Below, in pieces: positions 9,166 to 32,952 of a stretch of 64,000 bases of DNA. Source of the stretch: a bacterium. GTDB lineage: Bacteria; JAMCPX01. Within the stretch, counting starts at the first letter, position 1. Each line of letters opens with the position of its first letter. A program made the position numbers and the translations under genes. The stretch covers positions 14,887 to 78,886 of the forward strand of contig JBBIVV010000004.1 of assembly GCA_037439545.1 (NCBI GenBank). Direction: 5' to 3'. The notes beneath the pieces are model-generated. The model was not told the origin of the DNA. It did not search any database and was given only the letters and a program-made list of their open reading frames with translations.

Positions 9166-10755
9166 CTAAGGCATTTGCAGAAGCGTGAATACATGGTCGT
9201 CTACGGCAGCATGGACAGCCTCAACGCTTCTGCCTTCGACGGATACAATGCTTTGAGCCGCTCCGATCTTTTTTAATTCTACGTGTGACCAGGCGGCAGC
9301 GAGCGGCATATTGAGCGCTTTTGCTGCACACTCTTTTGCCGTCCAGACTCTGATGGACGCTTCCAGGCGTCCGAGAGATGATCGTTCGCACAGTGTCTGC
9401 TCGCTTGATTTCATGTAAATATGTGCGCCTTTCAATAGAGTGCCGGTCAGGCGTTCCACGTCTATGCCAACCGGACGATGTCCTCCAACGGCGATAGCGA
9501 AACGGTCATCGTGAGACGCACTGCAGTAAAAATCTTGTTCTCTTCCCGGCAGCATGCACGCCGGGCGTATGCCATCGGGTGCTATTGTTTCTATAAGCTT
9601 CGGATCTTCCGGAACTTCGTTCTTGTAGAGGATACGGGCAAGACGCTTGAGTGCTATCCTCGCTCCTATGTGCTGGTTCCTTTTACGGTGGTGTTGTCTG
9701 AGCCCTGCTTCCAGCTCGCGAGATGACAATATTTTTCCTACAAACGGCAGGATTCCTGCCAGCTCCACGACAGACATTCCTTCGTTTCTCTGTTTTATCG
9801 TCCGGAGATTGTCCTGTTCCGCAGCCTTCACCCACTCGGGCACAATCGTTTTATGTTTGAATATGTCCTTCATTCTCACGCCGAATGTTGCTTCACGGAG
9901 TTCCCCGGCTCTGTCATATATCCATATATCAAAGTCAAGCATGTCCGTCCCGGTCTCTCCTGGAATAACTTTGCAAAAATACGATTCTCCGGCTGCGGTA
10001 GGACGAATAATTGTTCTTTCTGCATATCCCACGGGAAAGGCGACGTAACCGTGATATCGCTGCCCCCATGCACAGGCAACATGAAACGCGGCATCAAGGA
10101 CAAACGGAGAGCCCAAAGGAGGATTGAGCGTGCCGAGATGTGGCGCATGCAGCGATGCCACAGCCCCCTGCCCGGACAGGAGCACTACGCCTGCGGTGTT
10201 GTGGAACGATGGACCAAAAGGTACGAGTTCTTCATAAAGCCTTTCTGCAGGCACAGGAAAACAAATTCCTTCGGCTGCACATGCAGTGTCGAGTGATAAA
10301 GGTATGCGATGGGGTATATCTGAGAATGTTACCCGCACGTGGTCACGCATCCGTGAAATGGTTCCACGTGATGTTCGTACCATGGTACCGAGCGCAGCAG
10401 TCACTGCATCATGCACTTTTGTCTCCATGTCCGTAACTGCTTCCAGAGGAGGCGTTCCGTCAGGCAGAGGAAGAAACCTGAGGAATTCCGCATCCCGGGA
10501 ACCGGACACGCTTTGCCCGGGATAGTGCGCAACGACAGCCTCGGCAAGCCTTTCAAGCGACTCAACCGCCGGATACACCGGCTGTTCCTCTACCCTGTGG
10601 TCTTGAAGATAGGGACGGTTTTCTATCCGGAGCGGCAGGCGTATGCGGGTATTGTTGGTTGGTCCTCTCTCATCATTGATCATAGGTAAGAAGTTTTCTC
10701 CTCTGCTCGTAAAACAAAGTTCCCTTCGATAAACGGGTTTGTCGACTAAAATCAC
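9166..10755 (-). CDS. Fusion protein: PKS-type dehydratase (double hot-dog) domain + Sfp-type 4'-phosphopantetheinyl transferase
   Basis: The N-terminal ~300 aa carry the PKS DH motifs LQDHRVEEQPVYPAVESLE (HxxxGxxxxP-like His motif) and LDAAFH (DxxxH). The C-terminal ~220 aa carry PPTase motifs: FYCSASHDDR, GIDVERL, WTAKECAAKA. GTG start. Confidence 0.65.
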   Translation of the reverse strand: MILVDKPVYRRELCFTSRGENFLPMINDERGPTNNTRIRLPLRIENRPYLQDHRVEEQPVYPAVESLERLAEAVVAHYPGQSVSGSRDAEFLRFLPLPDGTPPLEAVTDMETKVHDAVTAALGTMVRTSRGTISRMRDHVRVTFSDIPHRIPLSLDTACAAEGICFPVPAERLYEELVPFGPSFHNTAGVVLLSGQGAVASLHAPHLGTLNPPLGSPFVLDAAFHVACAWGQRYHGYVAFPVGYAERTIIRPTAAGESYFCKVIPGETGTDMLDFDIWIYDRAGELREATFGVRMKDIFKHKTIVPEWVKAAEQDNLRTIKQRNEGMSVVELAGILPFVGKILSSRELEAGLRQHHRKRNQHIGARIALKRLARILYKNEVPEDPKLIETIAPDGIRPACMLPGREQDFYCSASHDDRFAIAVGGHRPVGIDVERLTGTLLKGAHIYMKSSEQTLCERSSLGRLEASIRVWTAKECAAKALNMPLAAAWSHVELKKIGAAQSIVSVEGRSVEAVHAAVDDHVFTLLQMP

Positions 10756-10761
10756 CTTTAA

Positions 10762-10810
10762 TCCCCCTTAACAGGGGGAGAACCAAAGTGATCCCCCCGG
10801 ACAAGGGGGG
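10762..10810 (-). promoter_or_regulatory. Two tandem GC-rich hairpins; the distal one masks the SD-like AGGGGGA of the DH-PPTase gene
   Basis: Hairpin 1 is TCCCCCT-TAAC-AGGGGGA (10762-10779), a 7-bp perfect stem whose 3' arm sits 6 nt upstream of the GTG start. Hairpin 2 is CCCCCC-GGACAA-GGGGGG (10793-10810). Both lie between the thioesterase stop and the DH-PPTase start. Confidence 0.3.
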
Positions 10811-10939
10811 GCGGGGGGTTCTTTGACGCCGATAGAGTAGCAGTCCACGCAGAATACTATGAAAGCTTTGCAAGCAGTTCATAGGTGTTTTCCTTCGCAT
10901 CGTCAAGAACTTCTTCCCTGTTGTTGAATATCCACAAGA

Positions 10940-11440
10940 TCATTTTTTGAATAAAGGCATTTTTTGGGGGAACGTCTGCCACATATGGACGGTCTTCTTG
11001 TCCACGGCGACCGGCCATCCGGAGGGGCTCATCGCACAATGCTGCGTAAATCCCGAGCATATAAGTTTGCCTGTCTCGGCATGGGCAATGATATAACGGA
11101 ATGCAACCTTGACGCGGGTTATCTCCGCGGGACGGGTGTAGACCCACATGGGATCATCGTAATACAGGGGCGAATGGAACGTCATACCCAGATCTATAAT
11201 AGGATATACATACCCGCTGTCCTCTACTTCTTTGTACGGATACCCTACGTCTCTCATCAAACTTGCACGTCCCAGTTCAAAATACCTCAGGTAATTGGCA
11301 TGGTAAACGACCTCGGACCGGTCCGTATCTGCATAGAGTGTCCGGTTGAATACCTTGTGCCAGATCAATTTGCCCACAGCATCGCGGACAAACGGAGAAT
11401 CCTTGCTTACGGCTTCGGGTTTAAATGGAGCTGGTCTCAT
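10940..11440 (-). CDS. 4HBT-family hot-dog thioesterase (YbgC-like)
   Basis: 166 aa with 4HBT motif ...SEVVYHANYLRYFELGRASL.... Abuts the KS gene stop. Confidence 0.75.
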   Translation of the reverse strand: MRPAPFKPEAVSKDSPFVRDAVGKLIWHKVFNRTLYADTDRSEVVYHANYLRYFELGRASLMRDVGYPYKEVEDSGYVYPIIDLGMTFHSPLYYDDPMWVYTRPAEITRVKVAFRYIIAHAETGKLICSGFTQHCAMSPSGWPVAVDKKTVHMWQTFPQKMPLFKK

Positions 11441-12706
11441 CTATATTCCCCGGAACACGATACAGCAATTCGTGCCGCCGAAACCAAAAGCATTGGACAT
11501 GGCAATTTCAACTTTCTGCTTCCTCGCCTTATTGGGAACAACGTCAATATTATTAAATGCCGGATCCGGAATGTGGTTCATGGTGGGAAGGATGATCCCC
11601 TGCCGCATACCTTCTATAGTCAGGGCGCCTTCTATGGCAGCGGCTGCTCCCAGGGTATGGCCGATTTGAGATTTGTTTGACGAAATCGGAATGTGCTCAA
11701 GAGCACTGCCAAAAACTTCCCGCAGACAATTTATTTCGTTGAGATCGCCCTTTGGCGTAGAAGTGCCGTGGGTATTTACATACTGTATGTCTCCAGATTT
11801 CAGGCCGGCGTCATCAATGGCCTCCCGCATTGCCCGGGTAACCGTCGGTCCGTTCGGCCTGGTGAAATGGTAGGCATCGGATGTCCAGCCAACGCCGATA
11901 ACCTCGGCCATGGGTTTGAGTCCGTAGATCGGGATGGCTTCTTCGGATGCAAGCACCATGGCTCCCGCACCCTCTGACAGCACGAAGCCCTGGCGGTCTA
12001 CGCTGAACGGCCGGGATGCCTGTCCGGGATCATTCCACGCGCGGTCTTTCTCCGTCACTTTTATCGTTGCATTCATGTTGGCAAATCCATGGAGGATCTC
12101 CGGCATGATCGGGGTATCTACACCGCCGGCAAGGACGAAATCGCTGTCTCCGTCTCTTATCATCCTTGCGCCGATACCAATGGCATAGTTTCCTGAAGCA
12201 CATGCAGCCTGCGGGGAAAAGATGGGGCCGGTGAACCCAAGGAGCATACTTGCTTTGCCCGAGGGAAGATTGGCACAAAGGTTGGGGAGAAGGTAATTAC
12301 TGACACTGTTGGGTCCCCTTTCTTTCAAATTGTTCATGGCTGTCCTGTAGGCGTCATGACCGTTGATCGCAGAGCCCATCAGGCATGCAGTCCTTTCTTT
12401 TACGCCGTCAACCATCTCCAATCCGGCATGTGTCAAAGCATCTTTGCATACTGCCATGGTCAGGATTACATACATTGCATTCCATTCCTTGGCTTCTTTC
12501 TCACTGGAAAAGTCCAGTGCCGCAGGGTTCCAATCGGGGATTTCTCCGACCACATTTGCCAGCGTATCCGCCTTGCACCTGGTAGCGCGCCTGAACCCGG
12601 TCTCTCCCTTCACAGCCCTTTTCCATGTTTCTTTCAAAGTCTTTCCCAGCGGTGTTGCCATTGCATACCCTACGACAAAGACCCTTCTATTTTTAGGTGA
12701 TTTCAT
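11441..12706 (-). CDS. Beta-ketoacyl-ACP synthase (FabF/FabB-like KS)
   Basis: 421 aa with active-site Cys (ACASGNYAIG) and the His-His pair (THGTSTPKGD, GHTLGAAAAIEG). Confidence 0.9.
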   Translation of the reverse strand: MKSPKNRRVFVVGYAMATPLGKTLKETWKRAVKGETGFRRATRCKADTLANVVGEIPDWNPAALDFSSEKEAKEWNAMYVILTMAVCKDALTHAGLEMVDGVKERTACLMGSAINGHDAYRTAMNNLKERGPNSVSNYLLPNLCANLPSGKASMLLGFTGPIFSPQAACASGNYAIGIGARMIRDGDSDFVLAGGVDTPIMPEILHGFANMNATIKVTEKDRAWNDPGQASRPFSVDRQGFVLSEGAGAMVLASEEAIPIYGLKPMAEVIGVGWTSDAYHFTRPNGPTVTRAMREAIDDAGLKSGDIQYVNTHGTSTPKGDLNEINCLREVFGSALEHIPISSNKSQIGHTLGAAAAIEGALTIEGMRQGIILPTMNHIPDPAFNNIDVVPNKARKQKVEIAMSNAFGFGGTNCCIVFRGI

Positions 12707-12712
12707 GATTTT

Positions 12713-13963
12713 TTATCCCATTCTGTGAAAAACAACGCAAGCATTACATCCGCCGAACCCGAATGCGTTCTTTAAAACATACTCCTGCTTCAGTGTCCTT
12801 GCAGACCCGGGAACACAGTCCATGCTTATGGAAGGATCCGGGGTATAGTTGATGGTCGGAAGAATTGTGTCCGTCATCATTCCTTCCATGGCAAATATAC
12901 TCTCCAGGGCACTGGATGCGCCCATTGCGTGGCCGATCAGGGATTTGTTGGCACTCACGGGCGGGATTCTATCTCCGAAAATCTCCTTGAGTGCCCTATA
13001 CTCCACCTCATCTCCCACTTTTGTCGATGCTGCATGTGCATTGATGGCGCTGATATCCGGAGGAGCAATACCCGCATGTTTTATGGCACCATTTATGCAT
13101 TGAACAATGGTGTCCTGCCTGGGCGCGACATAGTGTTGGGCATCGGCAGTCATTGCCCATCCTGCGAGCTCCAGGGAATACCTTAATCCGTGAGCCCTCG
13201 CAAATTCAGGCGTCGATAATATGATACACCCGGCACCTTCCGATATTACGAACCCTCGCCTGTTCACGGAAAACGGCCTGCTTGCCGTGGCCGGTGCTTC
13301 AGGCGGTGCCTGCAGGGTGTTTTGATATGCCCCATTCATGGTCGCAAACCCTGCAACGATGCTTTCCACAAGCGGGAAATCCACTGCTCCGCAAATGGCC
13401 ACGTCAGCCATACCGCTCTGCAACATCATGGATCCTATGATCATGGATGTACTTCCGGTAGCACAGGCTGTGACGGTGGTCACTATAGGTCCTGTGGCAT
13501 TGGTCAGTATCGATACCTTGCCTCCCACCATGTTGACACAGGAATTAGGGTTTACATACGGTTTGGGCAATTGTCCGGATTCCACCATTATCCTGTCCGC
13601 ATCGAGAACCGCGTCAATACCGCCGATAGCAGTGCTGAATGTGGTTGCTATTCTGGGCGACAACTCCCCGGTAATTTCCAGATCGATCTTTTTCAACGCA
13701 CGATGGACTACGAGCATTCCGTATTTAAAAATCGGCGATTTCCATTGCACCATGTTTCTGGGGCTCAAAAACGGGTAAGGGGTAACGTCAACATCCGCAA
13801 CCTGTCCTGCAACCTGCACGGGAAATTTTTCTCTTAAGGGAAACCGTGTAAGGGGGCCGATACCACTGCGGCCGTGAGCAGCCTTGTTCCATTGGTCTTC
13901 AAAGTCCGTACCTAACGGAGAAACTGCATCATATCCCAGAACTACAGGCTTCACCGTATTCAT
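12713..13963 (-). CDS. Beta-ketoacyl-ACP synthase (second KS, catalytically intact)
   Basis: 416 aa with Cys motif TACATGSTS and His motifs AHAASTKVGD, GHAMGASSALES. Confidence 0.9.
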   Translation of the reverse strand: MNTVKPVVLGYDAVSPLGTDFEDQWNKAAHGRSGIGPLTRFPLREKFPVQVAGQVADVDVTPYPFLSPRNMVQWKSPIFKYGMLVVHRALKKIDLEITGELSPRIATTFSTAIGGIDAVLDADRIMVESGQLPKPYVNPNSCVNMVGGKVSILTNATGPIVTTVTACATGSTSMIIGSMMLQSGMADVAICGAVDFPLVESIVAGFATMNGAYQNTLQAPPEAPATASRPFSVNRRGFVISEGAGCIILSTPEFARAHGLRYSLELAGWAMTADAQHYVAPRQDTIVQCINGAIKHAGIAPPDISAINAHAASTKVGDEVEYRALKEIFGDRIPPVSANKSLIGHAMGASSALESIFAMEGMMTDTILPTINYTPDPSISMDCVPGSARTLKQEYVLKNAFGFGGCNACVVFHRMG

Positions 13964-14009: not shown

Positions 14010-15011
14010 TTACCACGGAATGAAACGGTATAATTTTGCAAACATCTCGTAAACTTCGATCCAATTCTGAAAATCCTCGGGGCTACGCATGTGCGCCCGC
14101 TTGTTGACCATAACCCAGCTCATGTGCGCGGCCCCATCTTTGCATGTGGAACAATCCCTGGTGGCAGACGTGCAGCACCGGTGCATTGTCTTGAGATCAG
14201 CCCCATACCGGATAAACCTGATAAGCCGTTTCGGCTGGGGATTGCGGGTATCCATGGGCTCGGTGACCGAAGGGCATTCGCCCCATCCCCATGCGCGGTC
14301 AAGCATTTTCCCTGTTGTGATTATTTTGTGGTAATACTTACTGGAGATTACGGTGTTATCGTATTTTTCCAGCATATAATCCATTTCCTCGCGCACGCTT
14401 TTAAGTATTTCCGGAGTCCATACGAACCCTTCCACGTCTTCATCGTTCGAAAATAACTGGAGGTGGACTTTGAGCCCGGCGTCCTTTATTTTTTTAACAA
14501 TACGTTCAATCGTGCCGGTCCCGACCTGTTTGGGTGTTATGGTGTACAGATAGTACGTGTAAGGGTCGCCCTCATAATTTTTCAGCGATATGCCGAACGT
14601 GTTCTTACCGCGCAGCACTTTCTCTTCGCTCTCGTCTCCCCACAGGGAGATTCCGACCATCATGTCCGGAAACCTGCTCCTTGGAATTTTGATCAGACCG
14701 TTTGTCGCACAATAGGTGGGAATACGCCGGTAAAACGCTTCAATCCTGTCAAGGAACAGCGTTGGTTCGCCTCCGATCAATATTGCCAGGTTCACGCCCC
14801 TTTCCTTCTCCTTATCGACAAACTCTTCCCATCTATGGATATCGGACTCTTCTTCCAGTTTGTGCTCGTCCGAAGAAAAGAAGAAACAGCCTTTACATCT
14901 CAGGTTACACTTGTTCGTCATGTCGTAGATGGAACTGCGTATGTTGAGATTGGAAATGGCGTTATACCGTTTTTTCCATTCTCCGTCTATAAGCGTACTT
15001 ACCGTGTGCAT
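14010..15011 (-). CDS. Radical SAM protein with C-terminal Cys cluster (SPASM/twitch-like)
   Basis: Cx3Cx2C motif (CNLRCKGC) near the N-terminus, glycine-rich SAM motif (ILIGGEPTL), C-terminal CCTSATRDCSTCKD cluster. Paralog of 15692-16780. Confidence 0.8.
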   Translation of the reverse strand: MHTVSTLIDGEWKKRYNAISNLNIRSSIYDMTNKCNLRCKGCFFFSSDEHKLEEESDIHRWEEFVDKEKERGVNLAILIGGEPTLFLDRIEAFYRRIPTYCATNGLIKIPRSRFPDMMVGISLWGDESEEKVLRGKNTFGISLKNYEGDPYTYYLYTITPKQVGTGTIERIVKKIKDAGLKVHLQLFSNDEDVEGFVWTPEILKSVREEMDYMLEKYDNTVISSKYYHKIITTGKMLDRAWGWGECPSVTEPMDTRNPQPKRLIRFIRYGADLKTMHRCCTSATRDCSTCKDGAAHMSWVMVNKRAHMRSPEDFQNWIEVYEMFAKLYRFIPW

Positions 15012-15027: not shown

Positions 15028-15618
15028 TCAGCGGGTACTTCTTATTGCATGATCAAACCCTCTGTCCTCCAATATTGCACGTACCATTTTATCGATCATC
15101 TTGTATGCCCGCTTCTCAAGAAGTCCGGAATCGGTCGTCACTGCCGGCTCCATGGTTACGGTAAAACGCTTCTGGAAGGATGCACCTTTGCCGTGCACGC
15201 TGACCATATACTGGAACTGCTGGTCCGTAATGGACTCCAGTGTGATGTCTACCTCCGGGGCATTTGACGCCTGATCCATGCTATGCACCTCAAGTCCTGC
15301 ACTCTGAAAGGCCTTTTGAATGCAATACCAGAAATACGATGTCAGACTCGGCCAGCTCTCATAGGTCATGGAGCCCTGAGGATTATAGTAATACCACATG
15401 GTCGTATTGTTCGCCTGGTTGTCTATGTTGGCGAGATATATCGACTTTCCGCGATAGCCCGGGAATGTCCTTCCGAGCTCCGGCATATAATTGTTCTGCG
15501 TGATCTCTACCTTTGCAGAGCCGCCATTGATTCCGCGCCTGCAACCTCCTGCAACTGCGATCATAAGAATGGTTATCGTACCTATCCATGCAACTACTCT
15601 GAACGTGTTATTCCGCAT
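15028..15618 (-). CDS. Lipoprotein, unknown function
   Basis: Signal peptide with lipobox (IAVAGGC); 196 aa, no recognisable domain. Confidence 0.5.
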   Translation of the reverse strand: MRNNTFRVVAWIGTITILMIAVAGGCRRGINGGSAKVEITQNNYMPELGRTFPGYRGKSIYLANIDNQANNTTMWYYYNPQGSMTYESWPSLTSYFWYCIQKAFQSAGLEVHSMDQASNAPEVDITLESITDQQFQYMVSVHGKGASFQKRFTVTMEPAVTTDSGLLEKRAYKMIDKMVRAILEDRGFDHAIRSTR

Positions 15619-15691: not shown

Positions 15692-16780
15692 TCAAAAACC
15701 CGGGGGCTGCTGCATATGAGAACACAGGTTCTCTCCCTTCTCATATCCCTTGACCCAGACGGCAAGGTACGTATCTACATAATCAAGCCATGATTTAAAG
15801 ATGTCCGGGTCCCCTGTGTGTCTGTTGAGCTTCGAGGTAACTATAGAACTCCCTGCGGCATAATGCCTGCAATCATCGCACACCGTGTCCGGCACGCAGC
15901 ATGCAGCACTTCTGTCCCACGTAAGATCAGTCCTGTACTGCCGGAATGACCTGCCGAGTCCTAATGCAGTGGATGAATTCATGCGTGGATAGGGACATGA
16001 GAATAATCGATACAGACTGCTCCTGTGGGTATGCACCGTGGCACTATATTTTGAAAACAGTACGGCCCCCGGGTATTTTTCCAACAGATCTATCATTACA
16101 TGGCGGGCTTTATCCAGCGTTTCCGGCGTATGCAATAGATTTCCTGAGTAGTCCATCGGTGCTGAAAACATATTGAACGTAAATTTACAATCATTTGACG
16201 CCAGTATGTCTGCGACCTCATAGGCTTCATCGATTGTATTCCTGCAGAAAGTGTATACGAATACCGCACGCGGGTCACCGGCATAATTATCGATTTGTTT
16301 TTTGAGCAGGTTCCCGGCTTTTCTTACTCTGCGGCTGGTCTCATCATTACCCCATACCGAGATGTGTATCTTGTATCCGACTGATTCCGGTATACGTTTG
16401 AGTCCGTTTGTAGCTATGCACCCTAACGGGATTTCCCCATAGCACGCGTGCAGCAGATCCGGGACGAGGGACGGCTCGGCACCGGCGAGAACAACGAATG
16501 TTATGCCCCTTTCTTTTTCCTTCCGGAAGAGGTCGCGCCATGCCTGCGGGTCGAGATTTTCCCGTGCAAATTGTTTTTCTCCGTTATAGTAGTAGCATCC
16601 GTCGCACCGCATGTTGCACCTCGTGGCCATGTCATACGTGGATTCCCGTAAAAAAAAGTATTTCCTGACCTTTTCCCAACGTTCCCGCACACGTGTATCC
16701 TCAAGAAGGTCTGCGAATTTCCATTCTTTTGTCAATGGTAAAGGGTCATGAAGGCTTAATGCTGCATTATCCGATTTCAT
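15692..16780 (-). CDS. Radical SAM protein with C-terminal Cys cluster (paralog of 14010-15011)
   Basis: CNMRCDGC Cx3Cx2C motif, VLAGAEPSL, C-terminal CCVPDTVCDDCRHY cluster. Start chosen at the internal ATG (MKSDNAAL) preceded by GAGGGA; the ORF track extends to 16873. Confidence 0.8.
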   Translation of the reverse strand: MKSDNAALSLHDPLPLTKEWKFADLLEDTRVRERWEKVRKYFFLRESTYDMATRCNMRCDGCYYYNGEKQFARENLDPQAWRDLFRKEKERGITFVVLAGAEPSLVPDLLHACYGEIPLGCIATNGLKRIPESVGYKIHISVWGNDETSRRVRKAGNLLKKQIDNYAGDPRAVFVYTFCRNTIDEAYEVADILASNDCKFTFNMFSAPMDYSGNLLHTPETLDKARHVMIDLLEKYPGAVLFSKYSATVHTHRSSLYRLFSCPYPRMNSSTALGLGRSFRQYRTDLTWDRSAACCVPDTVCDDCRHYAAGSSIVTSKLNRHTGDPDIFKSWLDYVDTYLAVWVKGYEKGENLCSHMQQPPGF

Positions 16781-19902: not shown

Positions 19903-20193
19903 ATGGTAACACAAACAAAAAAATTGACCGTCCAGGATATTCAGTTGAAGGTCTCGGAAATATTTATCAATGAACTTAAGCTTGAAGATGTGACCCCTGA
20001 GACATTGGATCCGGAACTGCACTTGATGGAGGAGCTGGGAATCGACAGCATGGATCTCATAACAGTAGTGTTAGTTCTGAAGGATGAATTCGCAGTCAAT
20101 ATTGATGAGGCTGATTATCCAAAACTTACCAATATCCGGCTTATCGCTGAGTATATTAAGGAGAAAATGGAAAATGCAAGAAGCGCCCGTTGA
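19903..20193 (+). CDS. Acyl carrier protein 1
   Basis: 96 aa with phosphopantetheine attachment motif LGIDSMDL. Confidence 0.8.
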   Translation: MVTQTKKLTVQDIQLKVSEIFINELKLEDVTPETLDPELHLMEELGIDSMDLITVVLVLKDEFAVNIDEADYPKLTNIRLIAEYIKEKMENARSAR

Positions 20194-25691: not shown

Positions 25692-26113
25692 CAGAAGCTG
25701 CTCTGCGGACATACTCCGTCAGACTCCGTGTGCCGTTCCACCATGTCGATCCAATGCAGGTCGTGTGGCATGGACATTACTTCGAATATTTTGAGGCAGC
25801 AAGGGACGGGCTGTTTGAAAGCCTGAACATCAATCTCGAAAGTTTCTATCCGAGCGATGGATACATCTTTCCCGTGATCCGCGGTTCGATAAAATTTATC
25901 CGCCCCCTCCGCTATAAAGATGTGTTTGTATGTACCGCGCGGGCTGCAGATGCAAAACGGAAAATAGTAATCGAGTATGAAATCAAATTGGAGTCCACCG
26001 ATACCCTGTGCACCAGGGGCAGTACGGAACAGATTGTTTTAAAGATGCCGGAAGCACAAATCGAATATGAAATCCCGAAGCTAATCCGCGAGGCAATACG
26101 TCCACACTTATGA
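25688..26113 (+). CDS. 4HBT-family hot-dog thioesterase
   Basis: 141 aa with VPFHHVDPMQVVWHGHYFEYFE. ATGA overlap with the lyase stop. Confidence 0.75.
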   Translation: MTEAALRTYSVRLRVPFHHVDPMQVVWHGHYFEYFEAARDGLFESLNINLESFYPSDGYIFPVIRGSIKFIRPLRYKDVFVCTARAADAKRKIVIEYEIKLESTDTLCTRGSTEQIVLKMPEAQIEYEIPKLIREAIRPHL

Positions 26114-27825
26114 CCGGTGACTTTTTTGATGCACTGAGGGCCGGCATTGAAAGAATTGCTGCATGGTCGGATCTTTTGGATAGTATCAATGTGTTCCCCA
26201 TTGCAGACGGAGATACAGGACGCAACCTGCTCATCAGCCTCTTACCCTTAAAATCATCTCTACGCGATCGCTCTTGTCTCATTGAAAAGCTTTTTCTTTC
26301 TGCCAGAGGCAATTCCGGCAATATTGCCGCGCATTTTTTTTCCGGATTCCTGTCTTCCGGGGACATTGCACGGCTTCCGGAAGCCGTCAGGGCAGGCAGA
26401 AGGCTTGCGTGGCAGGCTGTTGCCGATCCGCAGCCGGGAACCATGCTCAGTGTGTTTGACGAGCTGGAGATCTCCCTCGGTGAATCTTCTCTGGACGATC
26501 GCGGAGCATGGGTTTCCGGTGTAGTGAAGAGATTGGAAAAATCCGTACTGGAAACGACACGGACACTGCCGGTATTAAAGAGCACGGATGTCGTTGATTC
26601 AGGGGCACTGGGCATGTTTATGTTCTTCGATGCCTTTCTGAATGCCCTGTACACAAGAGCTCCCCAATGTGCGCCGCTCACTGCTGTATTCAGGGATCAT
26701 CTTGCCCTCAAAGGACCCTGGACAGGCACCGGGGAATCCGGCGTCTGTATCGATGCGGTCGTGAAATTAAAAAACGGCAGAAAAGGACCGCTCGGGGATC
26801 TGTCGCGGCTCGGAGAAAGTGTGGTTGCCCATGAACTTGGAGGACAGGTTAAGATACATTTTCATACAAAAGACCAGTCTGCTGTCAGGGAGGAACTGTC
26901 CCGTATGGGCAGCATCGTCCAGTGGGTATCCGATGATCTGGGGGTCCAGACCAGGACATTTTCCCCGGAACCCGTCCATCAGGCGATCCATGTCGTAACG
27001 GACGCTGCAGGCAGTCTCACGCGCGACGATGCCAGACAGCTCCATATAACTCTTTTGGACAGCTATATTGCCGTGGGCACGACTGATGCTCCGGAGACCC
27101 ATGTCCGGGGTTCTGAAATGTACCGTGCCATGAACAAGGGTATTAAGGTGACCACGTCCCAGGCATCCGTACTCGAGCGTCATCAGCATTACGAAAAAAT
27201 ATTGAGCCTGTACAATACGGCTCTCTACATATGCGTGGGCTCTGTTTTTACAGGGAACTACCGCACGGTCATGGATTGGAAGAAAGGTCATGACCCGGAA
27301 GACCGTCTCAAAGTCATCGACACAGGGGCTGCTTCAGGAAAACTGGGCCTCATTGCTCTCGCAACGGCACGGTATGCCCGGAGTGCTCCAACCGGGAAAG
27401 ATGTCGTGGATTTTGCCGTGCGTTCCGTAGCCGCTTGTGAGGAGTACATCTTTTTAGACACGCTGCATTTCCTCGCTGCAGGCGGGCGGCTGTCAAAAAC
27501 CAGCGCACTATTCGGAGACATGCTGCGAATGAAACCCGTGGTCAGCCCCTTTGCAGAGGGCGCAAAAAAAGTGGCAGTGGTGCGGAATAAAAAAGAACAG
27601 GCCGCTTTTGCTTTGGAAAAACTCGAAAAGGCCTTTCATGCCGGGGACCGTCCGCTTATTATGCTGGAATATACGGACAACGAAGAATGGATAAAGAACG
27701 ACATCACTGCTTTGATAAGCAGCAGGTTCCCGCATGCAGAGATAATCATACAGGCTTTTTCCCTTACTTCGGGCGCACATATGGGCCCCGGAACATGGGG
27801 CATTGCCTTCCTCCCCGCTCTCTGA
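26110..27825 (+). CDS. DAK2-domain kinase, FakA/YloV-like (fatty-acid-kinase A family), with DegV/Dak1-like (EDD-fold) C-terminal domain
   Basis: N-terminal Dak2 motif FPIADGDTGRNL. C-terminal VVTDAAGSLTRDDARQLHITLLDSYIAVG resembles DegV/Dak1_2 EDD-fold domains. 571 aa matches YloV length. Confidence 0.7.
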   Translation: MTGDFFDALRAGIERIAAWSDLLDSINVFPIADGDTGRNLLISLLPLKSSLRDRSCLIEKLFLSARGNSGNIAAHFFSGFLSSGDIARLPEAVRAGRRLAWQAVADPQPGTMLSVFDELEISLGESSLDDRGAWVSGVVKRLEKSVLETTRTLPVLKSTDVVDSGALGMFMFFDAFLNALYTRAPQCAPLTAVFRDHLALKGPWTGTGESGVCIDAVVKLKNGRKGPLGDLSRLGESVVAHELGGQVKIHFHTKDQSAVREELSRMGSIVQWVSDDLGVQTRTFSPEPVHQAIHVVTDAAGSLTRDDARQLHITLLDSYIAVGTTDAPETHVRGSEMYRAMNKGIKVTTSQASVLERHQHYEKILSLYNTALYICVGSVFTGNYRTVMDWKKGHDPEDRLKVIDTGAASGKLGLIALATARYARSAPTGKDVVDFAVRSVAACEEYIFLDTLHFLAAGGRLSKTSALFGDMLRMKPVVSPFAEGAKKVAVVRNKKEQAAFALEKLEKAFHAGDRPLIMLEYTDNEEWIKNDITALISSRFPHAEIIIQAFSLTSGAHMGPGTWGIAFLPAL

Positions 27826-28212: not shown

Positions 28213-29019
28213 ATGAGCACAACAACCCCTTCCTGCAGAATACCGCTGTGGCACGTGGTCGTACGGGGCCTGAAAGGCCTGTACATGTTTCTCATGTTTA
28301 TCGTGTTCGGCGGTGCAATACTCTTCGGTCATTTGTTCACGCCGTTCCTGCTTTTTCGCGACAGGCTCGCCGGACATGACCGGCAGTATAACCAGAGGTT
28401 CTACAGGGGGTTTGTTGTGTTATGGCTCTGGTTCATGGAAAAGGGAAGACTGCTGAAGGCCCTCCCCTATAAAGGTGAAATCATGGACGGGCCATGTGTG
28501 GTGATAGCAAATCACCCGGGCCTCTTCGATATTCTCATTTTGATCCGCGATGTTCCGAAGATGTCACTCATTGCAAAACAGTCCCTCAGGACAGGCCTCG
28601 GAATGGGTCATCTGTTCAGACTTGCAGGGTGGGTCTTTGCCTCAGGCAAATCGGATACTTCTATGGTACTTGATACCTCGAACAAGGCGCTGGAACAATT
28701 GAGGGACGGCTATAAGTTTATGCTTTTCCCGGAAGGCACACGGTCTCCCAAGGGTGGACTACACCGCTTCAAGGCCGGTGCTTTCAAGCTCGCACGGGCC
28801 GGACACGTGCCTGTCCAGCCTGTATTGATCTGGAACACGCCGCCGTTCCTGCCGCATGAAGATCACTGGTACTATCCGCCCTATGAAACATCGATCGTCC
28901 GGCTCGAGTTTTTGAAACCACTTCCCCTGCCCGGGGAAAAGGAGGAACGAAGAATAGCTATAGAGACGGAAAACCTGTTCCGCACCGCACTGGGCATGAA
29001 TCGTACGGCTGAAGCGTAG
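28213..29019 (+). CDS. 1-acyl-sn-glycerol-3-phosphate acyltransferase family (PlsC/LPLAT)
   Basis: N-terminal TM, HX4D motif (ANHPGLFD), FPEGTRS motif. Preceded by a 387-bp AT-rich non-coding gap with a TATAAT ~10 nt upstream. Confidence 0.8.
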   Translation: MSTTTPSCRIPLWHVVVRGLKGLYMFLMFIVFGGAILFGHLFTPFLLFRDRLAGHDRQYNQRFYRGFVVLWLWFMEKGRLLKALPYKGEIMDGPCVVIANHPGLFDILILIRDVPKMSLIAKQSLRTGLGMGHLFRLAGWVFASGKSDTSMVLDTSNKALEQLRDGYKFMLFPEGTRSPKGGLHRFKAGAFKLARAGHVPVQPVLIWNTPPFLPHEDHWYYPPYETSIVRLEFLKPLPLPGEKEERRIAIETENLFRTALGMNRTAEA

Positions 29020-29115
29020 AGGAATAAGCGTTGCGGAAATTGCGTTATAAGCATTGACATAAAAACATTTATTATCTAAAAATCTAAGAAAGACTAATGC
29101 AAAAGGAAGAAGAAA

Positions 29116-30348
29116 ATGTCTGAAGGACGAAGGGTTGTAGTTACCGGCATCGGGTTCCGCTCTCCCATAGGAAACACGTTGAAAGCCATGAAGGAATCTC
29201 TGCAAAGCGGACGCGGCGGCATCAGAGTAATGCCGGAATGGAACAATGTCGATCATCTGCGCACCAGAGTTGCGGGTGTGTGCGGTGACGTTGACGATAA
29301 AGTGATCCCGCGCAACTACAGGCGGAGCATGGGCAGGGTTTCTGTCCTTGCCGCCATAGCAGCCTTGGAAGCGATTGCCGACTCGGGCATCAGCGAGCAA
29401 GAGATCGGTTCGCCTCTATGCGGGGTCTCATTCGGATCGACTGCCGGCAGTTCCGAATCCATGGAAGGCTTCGTTAAGGACGTTTTTACCAGTCGAAGCC
29501 TCAAGGGATTGCAATCATCCGTATACCTGCAGTTCATGAGTCATACCTGTGCTGCAAATCTCGCAATGATGTTTCATACCAAAGGGCCTGTCGTTGCCTC
29601 GTGCACGGCATGCGTGTCCGGGTCGCAGGGAGTGGGCTTCGGATACGAGGCGATAAAAGCAGGCCGTGCCGATATAATGCTTGCAGGCGGTGCAGAGGAA
29701 ATGCACTTTATGGATGCGGGGATTTTCGATATTATGAGAGCAACTTCGACGAAATATAATGATCGCCCTGACTCCACGCCCCGTCCCTTTGATGTCGACC
29801 GGGACGGACTGGTGGTCGGAGAGGGAGCAGGATGTCTTGTTCTCGAGGAATATGATCACGCGAGATTCAGGGGAGCACGCATCTACAGTGAAGTCGTCGG
29901 TTACGGGACGAACTGCGACGGCTCTCATCTGACAAATCCGAGCGCCGAGGGAATGGCGGGAGCCATGAAGATCGCATTGAAAGATGCGGGCATGTCTGCG
30001 TCTGACATTGGTCATGTCAACGCACACGCCACGGCAACATCTGCCGGAGATACGGCTGAGGCAGCCGCCACCCACGAGATATTCGGGACATCGGTGCAGG
30101 TTAGCGCGCTCAAAGGTTTCACCGGACATACGCTCGGGGCATGCGGGGCGATTGAATCCATAGAAACCATTTTGATGATCAATGAGCATTTTATAGCTGC
30201 GTCAAAAAATCTTGAAACCCCTGATCCTGCACTGCCTCCACTGAACCATGTGATAGGTGGTGCACGGGACTTTTCCTTCGATATAGGGATGAACAATAAT
30301 TTTGCATTCGGAGGGATTAACACATCCCTTATATTCCGCAGGGTATGA
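29116..30348 (+). CDS. Beta-ketoacyl-ACP synthase (FabF/FabB-like)
   Basis: 410 aa with CTACVSGSQG, HATATSAGD, GHTLGACG. Confidence 0.9.
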   Translation: MSEGRRVVVTGIGFRSPIGNTLKAMKESLQSGRGGIRVMPEWNNVDHLRTRVAGVCGDVDDKVIPRNYRRSMGRVSVLAAIAALEAIADSGISEQEIGSPLCGVSFGSTAGSSESMEGFVKDVFTSRSLKGLQSSVYLQFMSHTCAANLAMMFHTKGPVVASCTACVSGSQGVGFGYEAIKAGRADIMLAGGAEEMHFMDAGIFDIMRATSTKYNDRPDSTPRPFDVDRDGLVVGEGAGCLVLEEYDHARFRGARIYSEVVGYGTNCDGSHLTNPSAEGMAGAMKIALKDAGMSASDIGHVNAHATATSAGDTAEAAATHEIFGTSVQVSALKGFTGHTLGACGAIESIETILMINEHFIAASKNLETPDPALPPLNHVIGGARDFSFDIGMNNNFAFGGINTSLIFRRV

Positions 30349-30367
30349 TAGTGCCGCAGACGGAAAC

Positions 30368-30745
30368 ATGGCGATACTGCACACAATAGCTACCTATGTC
30401 AGTCATACGGCATACGGCCGTGCGGCAGTTGAATCGAAGGCTGATTTGAGTCTTTTCAAAAAGCCGCCTTCTTTCCCCTTTATCCTCGGTCTTATCCTCC
30501 TGGGTTTGAGCTACGTGATCGGATGGCCCGGTGTCGTGGTCAGCGGAATCGCTGCAGCGTATCTGAAAAATCCGTTGATTTTCGTCATTGGAGGACCTGC
30601 GATATATGCCGTCTCTTTTCTGGTATGGGCTGTTTCCATGCTGCTTATGGGGAAAGATAATATCAAGTATGCACGTGCATTTACAAAATACGGGGTGCGG
30701 ATCCTCATCGAAAGGTTTGCTCCGCCGCCCTCACCGGGTAAATAA
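30368..30745 (+). CDS. Small integral membrane protein (3 predicted TM)
   Basis: Hydrophobic ORF starting at the ATG right after the KS stop; the ORF track starts at 30302 within the KS. Confidence 0.4.
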   Translation: MAILHTIATYVSHTAYGRAAVESKADLSLFKKPPSFPFILGLILLGLSYVIGWPGVVVSGIAAAYLKNPLIFVIGGPAIYAVSFLVWAVSMLLMGKDNIKYARAFTKYGVRILIERFAPPPSPGK

Positions 30746-31396
30746 CCCGTCTGTGCGATTCAGTGGTTCTCCTTCGAGAAGTTCCAGAGACAGCGAATAT
30801 CCGGTCCCTGCATAAGACTCCAGGTGCATACGTTTATATAACCCTTCGACGAGCGGAGGAAATAGTGACACCTTGCGCAATATCTTATGATCCGGACCGT
30901 ATTCCCGGATGATTGTTATTCCTGAAGCCCCGGAGTTTTTTTCAAATACATTTCCACTGCTTGTCCATCTGCACATGAGGGAGCCGTCTTCGTGTACCTT
31001 TGCATCCGTGAGGTCCCCCTGGCCGGGAAAAAACATGAACTCAATATCGCTGAACAGTCCGCGGGTAAACTCTCCGGACAAAAATTGCTGCATGGTGCGA
31101 TAGATGGTTATAGACCCTTTATCGCTTACAGCGTCTAAGAGGACCAGTCCTTCGACACTGAGTAAGGTAGCGCGAATTCGGTCACCGGATGCATCGACTA
31201 TGGTCACGCCTATGAAGGAACTGCTCTTTCCCCGAACATCGACGTCGATAATATGGACAGCCCGGAAGATACCCGGAGAGATCGCGGCAAAGCATTTTTT
31301 CTGAAGATAAGGATTGATCACCACTGCGGGCTTCGGGGGCACCGGGATGCTGCATGATAATCCGGTCAAAGCGAAAATCAGAAGAAGAAGCTTCAT
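30731..31396 (-). CDS. Lipoprotein, unknown function
   Basis: Signal peptide plus lipobox (LTGLSCS). Start overlaps the LolA-like stop (ATGA coupling). Confidence 0.5.
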   Translation of the reverse strand: MKLLLLIFALTGLSCSIPVPPKPAVVINPYLQKKCFAAISPGIFRAVHIIDVDVRGKSSSFIGVTIVDASGDRIRATLLSVEGLVLLDAVSDKGSITIYRTMQQFLSGEFTRGLFSDIEFMFFPGQGDLTDAKVHEDGSLMCRWTSSGNVFEKNSGASGITIIREYGPDHKILRKVSLFPPLVEGLYKRMHLESYAGTGYSLSLELLEGEPLNRTDGLFTR

Positions 31397-32010
31397 TTTA
31401 CATCTTCGAACGTTGTGTCCGATATCTTCGCATTTAAAGCTATGTGCGAAAACTCAAGTACGGTGGATGAACCCTGGGGTTCGAGTATTTCAATAGTGGA
31501 AATGACCCCTGATGTGCCGGACAGCGTCAGGGTGATACGCCTGATGAAGTTTTTTAAATAATCCTTGTTCGGAATAAGTATTATCCGCCGTGGTTTCCCG
31601 GGTATCAGTTTCGGAACAAATGCGCTGTTGTCATGGAAATTCCCCCTGAGCCATGAAGCAATCTGCTCCATCACTATACGCGTTGCCTGCAATTGAGGGC
31701 CGGAATCCTTTATAAAATGATCCTTTGTCCAGACATACTGTGTAACCTTGTCCCCATGGACGAGAAGAACGTTTTTAACCGGATATATATACTCCCACCG
31801 GACATCTCCGGGGGCACGAAAGTAAAAACGGCCGTCACTGACCAGCGGTCTTGCGAGGATTTTAAGGTTTTTTTTCTGGGTAAAATGCGCTGAGATAGAG
31901 TGGACACCGGACATGTCCTGCCGGATGCTCTCCCAATTCTCTGTCCATCCCGCCCTTGCAAGGACCGGCATCATAAGTATCATCGCAAAGGTGAGAATGC
32001 TTCGTCTCAT
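31393..32010 (-). CDS. LolA-like outer-membrane lipoprotein carrier family protein
   Basis: Signal peptide MRRSILTFAMILMMPVLARA, then a LolA-like region (SISAHFTQKKNLKILARPLVSDGRFYF). Start chosen at the internal ATG; the ORF track extends to 32214. Confidence 0.55.
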   Translation of the reverse strand: MRRSILTFAMILMMPVLARAGWTENWESIRQDMSGVHSISAHFTQKKNLKILARPLVSDGRFYFRAPGDVRWEYIYPVKNVLLVHGDKVTQYVWTKDHFIKDSGPQLQATRIVMEQIASWLRGNFHDNSAFVPKLIPGKPRRIILIPNKDYLKNFIRRITLTLSGTSGVISTIEILEPQGSSTVLEFSHIALNAKISDTTFEDVK

Positions 32011-32220
32011 ATTTAATCGAAAAAGTTCCTCCATAGGGTTCACATGATCCTTCAAAACACCTTCGTTTTTAAATCCTAAATCCGAACATCCATATCCTAA
32101 ATAAACCAAAAATCTTAGAAGTAAATGACCAAAATAAATTAACAATTTATTTTGGATTTTTGTCGTTTGATATTGTTTAGTGATTAGGATTTTGAGTTTG
32201 GGGTTTGATTGCATAAACTG

Positions 32221-32952
32221 CTATACCATGCCGCCGTTTACCGAGATTACCTGTCCCGTGACATATGATGCATCATCCGAGCACAGGAACCGCACGACCT
32301 TTGCGACTTCCCCTGGGGTGCCGACCCGTTCCATGGGAATGAGCTTGAGTATAATGTCGCGCGGAGCATCTTTGATCATCTCTGTTTCTATCAGCCCCGG
32401 AGCCACAACATTCACCCTGATACCGAGGCGGGCAACTTCCTTGGAAAGGGCCTTGCTTGCACCGATCAATCCGGCCTTGGCTGCGGAATAGTTCGTCTGG
32501 CCGCGGTTCCCGGTTATCCCTGACACAGAGGATATGGTAATAATGGAACAGCCCTTCTTCACACGCAGCATGCTGGTAAGGACCGGCTTTGTCACATTAA
32601 AGAACCCGTCCAGGGATGTCTGGATCACGGATTGCCAGTCTTTCTGGGGCATCATCGCTAAAAGCCCGTCTGAGGAAATACCCGCATTATTGACCAGGAC
32701 ATGGATTGCCTTGTATTTGTTCAGGAGGCCGGCTATGGCAGTTTTGGCTGTCTCGGCATTTCCCACATCGAATTGTATAACCTCTCCCTCACCTCCGGCA
32801 TCGTTCACCAGACGAAGTGTCTCCTGTGCCGCTGCCCCGTTGCTCTTATAATTTATTATTATGGTATACCCTGCACGTGCAAGCTCCACGCACGTTGCAC
32901 GGCCAATTCCCCTGCTCCCGCCGGTAACCAATGCTATTTTTTTGTCTTCCAT
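32221..32952 (-). CDS. fabG: 3-oxoacyl-ACP reductase (SDR)
   Basis: 243 aa with TGGSRGIGRA cofactor motif, NNAG and YxxxK-type SDR catalytic region. Confidence 0.85.
   Translation of the reverse strand: MEDKKIALVTGGSRGIGRATCVELARAGYTIIINYKSNGAAAQETLRLVNDAGGEGEVIQFDVGNAETAKTAIAGLLNKYKAIHVLVNNAGISSDGLLAMMPQKDWQSVIQTSLDGFFNVTKPVLTSMLRVKKGCSIITISSVSGITGNRGQTNYSAAKAGLIGASKALSKEVARLGIRVNVVAPGLIETEMIKDAPRDIILKLIPMERVGTPGEVAKVVRFLCSDDASYVTGQVISVNGGMV

Follow-up and report, generated by a model that had tools for sequence, protein, structure and literature searches.

The described systems closest to the locus reported here are the aryl polyene (APE) clusters, the flexirubin clusters and the ladderane-candidate clusters of anammox bacteria. 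The gene roles and pathway logic of APE clusters used here for comparison are those of PMC8253772. Ladderane biosynthesis is still unsolved (PMC13459092; bioRxiv 10.64898/2026.05.19.726425), and the candidate genes have proved hard to study heterologously (PMC4790861). Deltaproteobacterial clusters syntenic with those of Kuenenia were described in 2009, together with a 'novel anaerobic unsaturated lipid pathway' that Rattray et al. proposed for Kuenenia and Desulfotalea; Desulfotalea carries a syntenic cluster, yet ladderanes were not found there (PMC2649909). Calls of 'ladderane' regions by antiSMASH in Desulfobacterota and other non-anammox phyla have been left unexplained (PMC9902471). In this study, we describe a locus of about 24 kb (positions 9166–32952) within a 64-kb stretch of contig JBBIVV010000004.1 (assembly GCA_037439545.1), the whole of which is referred to as the window. 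Judged from gene content and synteny, the window locus represents one lineage's form of a large, uncharacterised family of clusters in Desulfobacterota and Spirochaetota; it appears APE-/flexirubin-like in outline and, by the features that define those two cluster types, belongs to neither. The reading that we favour, with about an even chance of being right, is that the 24 kb form one locus whose product is an acyl lipid, either of polyene type or modified in some other way, in the envelope of an anaerobic diderm cell.

The gene content of the window was established by listing open reading frames (ORFs) and scanning them against Pfam and NCBIfam. All 23 genes of the locus were recovered at or near the coordinates, and with the domains, given in an earlier sequence-only reading of this DNA (Table 1). 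They comprise four intact ketosynthases (KS), one of which lies within a fusion to a chain-length factor (KS-CLF), with Cys-His-His retained in all four KS domains; three radical S-adenosylmethionine (SAM) enzymes, namely rSAM1, rSAM2 and the B12-binding B12-rSAM; two tandem acyl carrier proteins (ACP1 and ACP2); a dehydratase fused to a phosphopantetheinyl transferase (DH-PPTase); two 4HBT thioesterases (TE1 and TE2); a FabG-type ketoreductase (KR); a CrtI-like flavoprotein; a methylidene-imidazolone (MIO) ammonia-lyase; a FakA-like kinase; a PlsC-like acyltransferase; and LolA-like and YceI-like carriers. In order of transcription, the left-hand minus-strand block (9166–18351) encodes an unassigned protein, the YceI-like protein, rSAM2, a lipoprotein, rSAM1, KS_B, KS_A, TE1 and DH-PPTase. 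The plus-strand blocks (18578–30745) begin with B12-rSAM, the two ACPs, KS-CLF, the CrtI-like protein, the lyase, TE2 and a FakA-FakB fusion, and end with the acyltransferase, KS_C and a small two-helix membrane protein; the right-hand minus-strand block (30731–32952) carries a secreted unassigned protein (unk221), the LolA-like carrier and KR. The claimed absences also stand: the region holds no FabH, FabD, FabI, acc gene or AMP-ligase, and the view that this is a dedicated type II fatty acid synthase/polyketide synthase (FAS/PKS)-like lipid cluster, not the housekeeping fab operon, is supported. The ATGA overlaps were fewer than the 'many' reported, being confined to the lyase/TE2, TE2/FakA-FakB and unk221/LolA junctions. 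Translation probably starts downstream of the longest ORF in DH-PPTase (near 10650), rSAM2, ACP2, KS-CLF (called two codons after the longest-ORF start), the CrtI-like gene and the LolA-like gene.

Relatives were sought by scanning one genome per species with an alignment of the CLF half, which gave 306 loci in species-representative genomes (individual loci carry L numbers below). The best 80 of the 306 are metagenome-assembled genomes (MAGs), mostly labelled Desulfobacterales, Syntrophales, Desulfatiglandales or Spirochaetota. All window proteins were used as tblastn queries, and co-occurrence was counted over the 29 loci with full 10-kb flanks. ACP2 is present in 27 of these 29, immediately upstream of KS-CLF; an ApeI-like dehydratase in 23; the window-type B12-rSAM in 22, with orthologues about 50% identical; ACP1 in 21; a TIGR04072-type B12-rSAM in 20; the LolA-like gene, KR (median identity 62%) and an ApeP-like dehydratase in 19 each; rSAM1 and KS_B (median 65%) in 18 each; and rSAM2 (median 67%) in 17. 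The protein unk221 (18/29 loci, median 31%) always adjoins the LolA-like gene, and DH-PPTase follows TE1 in 11/29 loci. A recurrent supercluster is thus seen in which the window-type B12-rSAM, an unassigned protein, LolA and KR stand on one side, while ACP2 and KS-CLF stand on the other, usually with a TIGR04072-type B12-rSAM, a deacetylase-methyltransferase and an ApeI-like dehydratase, and ACP1, rSAM2, rSAM1, KS_B, KS_A, TE1 and DH-PPTase form the end. The earlier proposal that the three blocks are one unit is borne out by 24-kb synteny in the metagenomic contigs L085 and L086, at 48–88% protein identity, where only the two small genes at 15028–15618 and 17854–18351 are missing; genes of all three blocks are also interleaved around KS-CLF in Desulfobacterales, Syntrophales and Spirochaetota loci.

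Seven relatives (L003, L004, L006, L007, L084, L085 and L086), at 63–80% identity, share the operon ACP1-ACP2-KS-CLF-CrtI-like-lyase-TE2-FakA/FakB. The genes for the lyase, TE2 and the kinase fusion, which are coupled in translation, always lie next to one another, in these seven loci as in L057; within the counted set, the FakA-FakB fusion is found in 7/29. Beside DH-PPTase, L086 carries an AMP-binding enzyme, whose second-best NCBIfam match is 4-coumarate-CoA ligase at well under cut-off, together with ApeP-like and ApeI-like proteins and a third ACP; in the window that place is taken by an O-antigen-ligase/TPR gene. The L002 gene after KS-CLF passes the TIGR04072 cut-off (394.3 bits against 360). 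For the window, tblastn found no AMP-ligase or ApeI/ApeP-type dehydratase within the 64 kb, the L086 AMP-binding protein and the L002 and L086 ApeI-/ApeP-like proteins matching nothing there; the Pfam scan found no PF00501 protein in the cluster; and neither a TIGR04072-type enzyme nor a deacetylase-methyltransferase occurs anywhere in the 64 kb. Nor was a FabZ-like gene found in the window, or a glycosyltransferase or RND/MMPL protein among the window ORFs scanned. Relative to the wider family, the window lineage appears to have gained the lyase, TE2 and FakA-FakB, and to have lost the TIGR04072-type enzyme, ApeI/ApeP and the deacetylase-methyltransferase.

The sequence-only reading had taken the fusions and the gene combination as unlike textbook examples. 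They are not rare: the KS-CLF fusion is present in 306 species-representative genomes, full-length fusions at 48–75% identity number more than 115, and those of DH-PPTase and FakA-FakB are found again in related loci; the hybrid APE-/ladderane-candidate character is a property of a large family and is not peculiar to this locus. The family was already noticed in 2009 (PMC2649909), and the wider family probably corresponds to the 'ladderane' regions of antiSMASH surveys outside anammox (PMC9902471). Next to the TIGR04072 radical SAM gene, L002/L026, L039, L048 and L064 carry a polysaccharide-deacetylase/methyltransferase fusion, an unexpected companion in a lipid pathway; over 85 residues, its deacetylase half is 29% identical to kuste3351.

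The likeness to anammox ladderane-candidate clusters, also put forward in the sequence-only reading, holds in part: KS-CLF resembles 9s5h, B12-rSAM resembles kuste3608 and kuste2803, and a CrtI-like protein is present, the remainder being partial. Kuenenia proteins were compared as N-terminal fragments of about 128 residues (S2 Table of PMC4790861), using family hidden Markov models (HMMs) built from members of the window cluster family. The window-type B12-rSAM HMM scored 61 bits on the kuste3608 fragment and 47 bits on kuste2803 and did not match kuste3342, which the TIGR04072-type HMM matched at 128 bits; by BLASTP, B12-rSAM is 35% identical to the kuste3608 N-terminal fragment over 120 residues. 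The 'radical SAM trio' does not correspond to the set found in Kuenenia. With the HMMs of rSAM1 and rSAM2, kuste3343 was matched only at superfamily level (26 and 18 bits), B12-rSAM scored 59.7 bits against TIGR04072, far under its cut-off of 360, and a TIGR04072/kuste3342-type enzyme was not found in the window. The CrtI-like HMM matched kuste3336 (63.5 bits) and kuste3607 (48 bits) through the generic FAD-binding N-terminus only. Among the carriers, ACP2 is 45% identical to kuste3340, and none of the window ACPs was matched by kuste3603 (amxACP) at E < 0.01; kuste3604 matched, weakly, the L002 ApeI-like protein only.

The KS-CLF fusion bears on both comparisons. Its KS half matches 9s5h_B best in the PDB (194 bits), followed by the ApeO structures 6qsp_A (190.8 bits) and 7f28_B (188 bits), and its CLF half, which PF13723 spans and which reads SVHNAPAGQ at the Cys-motif position, likewise matches 9s5h_C best (27 bits), followed by ApeC 6qsp_B (23 bits). 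By eye, a segment of 9s5h_C is nearly identical to the kuste3606 fragment, and 9s5h is therefore taken to be the anammox FabF2/FabFmut heterodimer (bioRxiv 10.64898/2026.05.19.726425); since its scores and those of ApeO/ApeC are nearly equal, KS-CLF stands equidistant from the anammox and APE pairs. The window pair of KS and dead KS is fused, and its CLF half is far more diverged than 9s5h_C. BLAST lent no support to a guess that kuste3345 is ApeC-like, finding no match to the CLF half at E < 0.01. As listed in PMC4790861, kuste3335–3352 hold a phenylacetyl-CoA-ligase-like protein, a glycosyltransferase, FabZ, FabG, ACPs, FabFs and a membrane protein, which make up an APE-like set.

The family holds two radical SAM subfamilies without a characterised relative, each conserved at 75–79% identity across phyla. 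The paralogues rSAM1 and rSAM2 are 26–28% identical to each other, and no NCBIfam model comes near its cut-off for either. For rSAM1, 1903 homologues were found, the best 120 at 74–89% identity and generically named. Among 1.84 billion representatives at 50% identity its family forms a single full-length cluster; the next full-length relatives are at most 38% identical, with no anammox label among the clusters of relatives at 29–38%. An alignment-based AlphaFold2 model of rSAM1 gave only generic radical SAM matches in a Foldseek search of the PDB and falls within the SPASM/twitch structural clade. Sequence and model together point to rSAM1 as a new subfamily of that clade without a close characterised relative. 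SPASM/twitch enzymes combine hydrogen abstraction with an auxiliary cluster, bringing about dehydrogenation, decarboxylation or the formation of C–C or C–S bonds. In the related loci rSAM2 always adjoins rSAM1, and the position of ACP1 directly upstream of rSAM2 in most of them suggests a carrier-bound substrate; both enzymes are likely to act on carrier-bound lipids, a property that, to our knowledge, few radical SAM enzymes share. The CrtI-like protein scores 101 bits against CrtD, with a cut-off of 549. Its homologues are 39–77% identical; those with an organism label belong to Desulfobacterota, Syntrophales or Spirochaetota, no anammox-labelled protein occurs among the best 120, and the Desulfonema limicola homologue lies in an unrelated gene context.

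The resemblance to APE and flexirubin clusters that the sequence-only reading proposed also stands in its parts, namely the matches to PRK09185, PRK09116, PRK09184, LolA2_flexi, FlxB and ApeO/ApeC, and fails in the defining features. The KS half of the fusion reaches 307.8 bits against NF006618/PRK09185, under the cut-off of 407. KS_C is 81% identical to its counterpart in L085 and 68% in L047, and the PRK09116/NF006587 model, which it matches at just under cut-off, presumably corresponds to ApeR, the second KS of APE clusters. ACP2 is, by its assigned gene role, the probable partner carrier of KS-CLF, and KS_B (top PDB match B. subtilis FabF) is likely to be the partner of KS_A, which is 66–71% identical across related loci and 88% identical in L085/L086. 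TE1 orthologues (55–66% identical) follow KS_A in related loci. In DH-PPTase, 56% identical to a 495-aa orthologue in L086 and without a match in a PDB sequence search, the dehydratase motifs HxxxExxxxP and DxxxH and the PPTase motifs GIDVE and WxxKEcaaK all read as intact; its PS-DH domain is present in a window where ApeI/ApeP were not found. The acyltransferase scores 79.5 bits against TIGR00530 (cut-off 103) and is 67% identical to its L085 orthologue. Because no loader, ApeI/ApeP, glycosyltransferase or RND transporter was found, an APE-like route is incomplete in the window.

The ammonia-lyase scores alike against models and structures of histidine (HAL), tyrosine (TAL) and phenylalanine (PAL) ammonia-lyases, and all of its NCBIfam scores fall under cut-off (HAL 430/524, BagA TAL 414/1000, FlxA 325.3/700). 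Its selectivity dipeptide is Tyr-His, kept in close orthologues and replaced by Phe-His in two more distant ones. The dipeptide is His-Leu in TAL, Phe-Leu in PAL and Ser-His in HAL; since Tyr-His fits none of these classes, a substrate assignment was dropped. In the FakA-FakB fusion, residues 5–280 resemble the FakA structures 7rm7 and 7w7h (about 70 bits) and residues 293–568 resemble DegV/FakB 1pzx (71 bits); as both parts are matched, the protein appears to be a carboxylic-acid kinase in a single chain.

Gene content, intact catalytic motifs, block co-conservation and family relationships are directly observed; the pathway below is a proposal built upon them. In a first module, made of the plus-strand genes and the right-hand block, the ammonia-lyase would supply an aryl-acrylic acid starter, which ACP2 would bear while KS-CLF and the PRK09116-type KS extended it iteratively, each round being processed by the FabG-like KR and the PS-DH dehydratase. 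The chain would be conjugated or unsaturated, because the cluster has no enoyl reductase; the CrtI-like flavoenzyme might adjust its double bonds and the kuste3608-type B12-rSAM alter an unactivated carbon. In a second module, the left-hand block, ACP1, KS_A/KS_B, TE1 and DH-PPTase would build or extend an acyl-ACP for modification by rSAM1 and rSAM2, for which dehydrogenation and C–C or C–X bond formation are plausible. The acid would then be freed by TE2, re-activated as acyl phosphate by FakA-FakB and joined to a lipid anchor by the PlsC-like acyltransferase; alternatively, FakA-FakB may activate the starter, replacing the missing adenylating enzyme. The LolA-like, DUF3261-like, YceI-like and small membrane proteins may carry the lipid to the outer membrane.

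Several points count against this proposal. No member of the cluster family has a known product, and we know of no verified precedent for an acyl-phosphate route into an ACP or a PlsC-type transferase. For KS_A, KS_B and ACP1, the nearest counterparts are components of ordinary FAS, the Tyr-His dipeptide of the lyase matches no known TAL, PAL or HAL class, and no adenylating or loading enzyme, ApeI/ApeP, glycosyltransferase or RND transporter was detected in the window. Two close relatives, L003 and L084, have the ACP-to-FakAB operon among unrelated neighbours and away from the radical SAM genes, so that the two halves are separable modules that may make separable products.

The first alternative is that the cluster serves a specialised membrane fatty-acid pathway and not a pigment-like secondary lipid, which we regard as unlikely but as a serious contender. 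The KS pair, FAS-type ACP and radical SAM enzymes would then make unusual membrane chains under anoxia, perhaps mid-chain methylated, anaerobically desaturated or cyclised, which FakA-FakB and the PlsC-like acyltransferase would feed into phospholipids, close to the role proposed by Rattray et al. for Kuenenia and Desulfotalea (PMC2649909). KS_A and KS_B score best against FabF (TIGR03150, 376 and 328 bits, the former under the cut-off of 493), ACP1 finds its best PDB matches in mitochondrial and bacterial FAS ACPs, and Fak and PlsC are enzymes of a phospholipid route. The 75–79% identity of rSAM1 across phyla is as expected for a core physiological function, and the cluster has housekeeping genes around it and lies some 15 kb away from dnaA/oriC. 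The lyase, the ApeO/ApeC-type KS-CLF and the LolA2_flexi-like and DUF3261-like proteins are, however, hallmarks of exported APE/flexirubin lipids rather than of bulk membrane lipid production; moreover, the cluster has no enoyl reductase, and the family is patchy, with accessory genes that vary from locus to locus.

An ordinary APE/flexirubin pigment cluster of an already known product class, with radical SAM genes that either are just neighbours or do minor tailoring, is improbable. Such a cluster would account for the KS/CLF, the two ACPs, the PRK09116-type KS, the KR, the 4HBT, LPLAT and LolA-like proteins, and for a lyase-derived starter as in flexirubin, and the separate plus-strand operon of L003 and L084 fits it. 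Every flexirubin equivalog is nevertheless under cut-off; DarA/DarB-type, ApeH, ApeI/ApeP, glycosyltransferase and RND genes were not found in the window; most related loci, in two phyla, have the radical SAM genes linked to KS-CLF; and B12-rSAM itself is the first gene of the plus-strand operon. That the three blocks are unrelated operons, adjacent by chance, is very improbable and at the level of co-inheritance already refuted: the occurrence of the ACP-to-FakAB operon between unrelated genes in L003 and L084 is outweighed by the synteny in L085/L086, which removes this reading, by the interleaving of three-block orthologues around KS-CLF, and by ACP1, which in the window lies within the plus-strand operon and elsewhere goes with the radical SAM genes, immediately preceding rSAM2 in most related loci. 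Production of ladderanes by this cluster is the least credible of all, for although B12-rSAM, an ACP, a KS with an inactive KS and a CrtI-like protein parallel kuste3603–3608, the closest labelled relatives are Deltaproteobacteria or plain 'bacterium', the wider family is found in Desulfobacterota and Spirochaetota and not in anammox Planctomycetes, Desulfotalea has a syntenic cluster without ladderanes having been found (PMC2649909), the window has no FabZ-type dehydratase and no ACP matching kuste3603, and identities to the Kuenenia fragments are just 26–38%.

The polyene-type or modified envelope lipid remains our preferred product. A more specific extension of it, which we hold as tentative and rather doubtful, is that the strongly conserved set ACP1-rSAM2-rSAM1-KS_B-KS_A-TE1-DH-PPTase with B12-rSAM, coupled in the window lineage to an amino-acid-derived aryl starter and to FakA-FakB activation replacing the adenylating enzyme, makes, in anaerobic diderms, a structurally novel class of acyl or polyene lipid modified by radical SAM enzymes, in which cyclisation, C–C cross-linking or methylation at unactivated carbons of the ACP-bound chain are possible modifications. 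If so, the non-anammox clusters would be tractable models for ladderane-candidate enzymology.

Table 1. Genes of the 24-kb locus, with positions in the window and supporting matches (scores in bits).
Feature	Position	Strand	Basis
DH-PPTase, PS-DH + Sfp-type PPTase fusion	9166..10755	-	PF14765, PF21089, PF01648
TE1, YbgC/FadM-type 4HBT thioesterase	10940..11440	-	TIGR00051 72.6, cut-off 68.7 passed
KS_A, FabF-like ketosynthase, intact Cys-His-His	11441..12706	-	PF00109, PF02801
KS_B, second FabF-like ketosynthase, intact Cys-His-His	12713..13963	-	Pfam/NCBIfam and motifs
rSAM1, radical SAM	14010..15011	-	CX3CX2C and C-terminal CCx6CxxC
Predicted lipoprotein, occasional family member	15028..15618	-	Signal peptide and AGGC lipobox
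rSAM2, radical SAM, rSAM1 paralogue	15692..16780	-	PF04055; same Cys motifs
YceI-like periplasmic lipid/polyisoprenoid-binding protein	16936..17679	-	PF04264 40.6
Small protein specific to this genome	17854..18351	-	Called as 165-aa gene on a 15.9-kb Logan contig
B12-rSAM, probable kuste3608/kuste2803 type	18578..19792	+	PF02310, PF04055
ACP1, FAS-type acyl carrier protein	19903..20193	+	PF00550
ACP2, APE-cluster-type carrier	20174..20464	+	NF006617/PRK09184 66.9, cut-off 70
KS-CLF fusion, active-type KS half + Cys-less CLF half	20472..22637	+	PF00109, PF02801, PF13723
CrtI/phytoene-desaturase-like FAD oxidoreductase	22645..24120	+	PF01593, PF13450
MIO aromatic amino-acid ammonia-lyase	24138..25691	+	PF00221 517; ASG motif
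TE2, 4HBT-fold thioesterase	25688..26113	+	PF03061; ATGA overlap with lyase and with kinase
FakA-FakB fusion, FakA kinase + middle domains joined to FakB/DegV	26110..27825	+	PF02734, PF21645, PF02645
PlsC/LPLAT-family acyltransferase (ApeD-like role)	28213..29019	+	PF01553 78.7
KS_C, PRK09116-family ketosynthase, intact Cys-His-His	29116..30348	+	NF006587 467.7, cut-off 470
Small membrane protein, two predicted transmembrane helices	30302..30745	+	Hydrophobic segments; start probably ATG 30368
unk221, secreted/lipoprotein-like, possibly DUF3261/LolB-like	30731..31396	-	PF11659 E = 0.085 only
LolA-like periplasmic carrier	31393..32214	-	PF03548 53.8
KR, 3-ketoacyl-ACP reductase, FabG/ApeQ/FlxB-like	32221..32952	-	NF004200 316.9, cut-off 273 passed

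The smaller genes differ in how widely they are kept. The small membrane protein, without a significant family match, has a 74% identical orthologue after KS_C in L085 and counterparts at 33–41% in four related loci, and the YceI-like protein has 57–58% identical orthologues at the same position in L085/L086. The lipoprotein at 15028–15618 has no family match but shares position with homologues (33–39% identical) in L029 and L064. For the protein at 17854–18351, no family match was obtained and no counterpart was found in L085/L086. The 387-bp gap between the FakA-FakB and acyltransferase genes (27826–28212) has a comparable gap of 434 bp in L085 and is overlapped by a minus-strand ORF (27636–27965) whose partial ORF6N match does not reach the Pfam cut-off; an internal promoter or a regulatory element may lie in this gap. 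Promoter and terminator scans of the window gave nothing above shuffled expectation, Rfam had no match there and ARAGORN found no tRNA.

The cluster is bordered by housekeeping genes on both sides, and its limits are therefore those stated in the sequence-only reading. The left flank carries ArgRS, a SPOR-domain protein, AspRS and the O-antigen-ligase/TPR protein, and the right flank a lipoprotein, FecR, a methyltransferase, PBP1, LpxL and LpxK. The ORF at 32861–34174 (+) was rejected as a cluster member: its only conserved stretch, the first 46 or so codons, is conserved solely as the antisense of the KR N-terminus, and its protein has no family match and no orthologue beside related clusters. 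The true start is probably near 33125, and the gene from there probably encodes a lipoprotein, with a signal peptide and the lipobox FSAGC. The methyltransferase (35646–36317, minus strand), a class I SAM enzyme with a weak cyclopropane-fatty-acid-synthase-like match (PF02353, 37 bits), sits 2.7 kb beyond the right-hand end of the cluster, past the FecR-like gene, and could be an ApeB-like tailoring enzyme. About 7 kb to the left, an NMO-family protein (1272–2225, plus strand; PF03060, 226 bits) adjoins a GMC oxidoreductase; although outside the conserved cluster, it could be a FabK-type enoyl-ACP reductase. Further right, dnaN (44841–45935) and dnaA (46124–47464), both on the minus strand, lie within a low-GC stretch (0.35–0.37) at 44313–48000, with the cumulative GC skew minimum near 48 kb and mnmE and mnmG just downstream; this region is very probably the chromosomal replication origin.

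These results place part of the ladderane-candidate gene set, comprising a KS/CLF-like pair, a kuste3608-like B12-rSAM, a CrtI-like flavoprotein and a kuste3340-like ACP, within a far larger non-anammox family that also shares ancestry with APE clusters, so that the shared genes alone are not diagnostic of ladderanes. The radical SAM pair represents sharply defined, unstudied families that bear on the ladderane question, and a FakA-FakB fusion inside a PKS-like operon suggests an unexplored activation route. Carriers of the family include Desulfosudis oleivorans and Desulfocicer vacuolatum, both species with cultured type strains, and the genus Syntrophus. The value added by this particular window is modest, as it comes from an uncultured MAG and the family has been noticed since 2009, and the result will not surprise a specialist.

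Compared with the APE clusters of E. coli CFT073 (apeA-R) and Xenorhabdus doucetiae (PMC8253772; structures 6qsp and 7f28), the locus likewise pairs a KS with a Cys-less PF13723-type CLF and has a second KS close to the PRK09116 family, two ACPs and a FabG-like KR; it too has no enoyl reductase, and it carries a thioesterase of the 4HBT type, an LPLAT-family acyltransferase and a LolA-like and possible DUF3261 protein that point to an envelope destination. It differs in the fusion of KS and CLF, in having no ApeH loader, ApeI/ApeP dehydratases, glycosyltransferase or RND pump, and in its anaerobic host lineage related to deltaproteobacteria, and it adds the ammonia-lyase, the CrtI-like, FakA-FakB, DH-PPTase and YceI-like proteins and three radical SAM enzymes. 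With the flexirubin clusters of Bacteroidota it shares the logic of an ammonia-lyase-derived aryl starter, type II PKS-like synthesis of a polyene, and a LolA-like carrier and an SDR reductase whose best NCBIfam matches are flexirubin models; unlike them, it has radical SAM genes and no DarA/DarB-type dialkylresorcinol genes were seen, and FlxB (314.4/340) and LolA2_flexi (91.9/125), like FlxA, stay under cut-off.

The anammox references are the Kuenenia stuttgartiensis loci kuste3603–3608, kuste2802–2805 and kuste3335–3352, with the syntenic Desulfotalea psychrophila loci. As in Kuenenia Cluster I, an ACP, a CrtI-like protein and a KS with an inactive partner accompany a B12-rSAM, here probably of the kuste3608/2803 type, and the wider family further shares the kuste3342/TIGR04072-type enzyme and a kuste3351-like deacetylase. 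The window differs in having no TIGR04072-type enzyme, amxFabZ-like dehydratase or amxACP-like carrier, and rSAM1 and rSAM2 have no clear orthologue, as judged on the N-terminal 128-residue fragments; the ammonia-lyase, Fak fusion and LolA set lie outside the Kuenenia clusters as listed. A further comparison is with the wider family itself, exemplified by L002/L026 (Spirochaetota MFD02979.bin.1.65), L039, L048 and L064 (Syntrophales) and L021 (a Desulfosudis oleivorans MAG), with which the window has in common ACP2, KS-CLF, the window-type B12-rSAM, KR, LolA with its adjacent unassigned protein, and the series ACP1-rSAM2-rSAM1-KS_B-KS_A-TE1-DH-PPTase at 50–78% identity. Most members of that family carry the TIGR04072-type enzyme, the deacetylase-methyltransferase and ApeI/ApeP-like dehydratases between KS-CLF and ACP1, whereas the window lineage has instead the CrtI-like protein, the ammonia-lyase, TE2 and FakA-FakB, with the acyltransferase and KS_C downstream.

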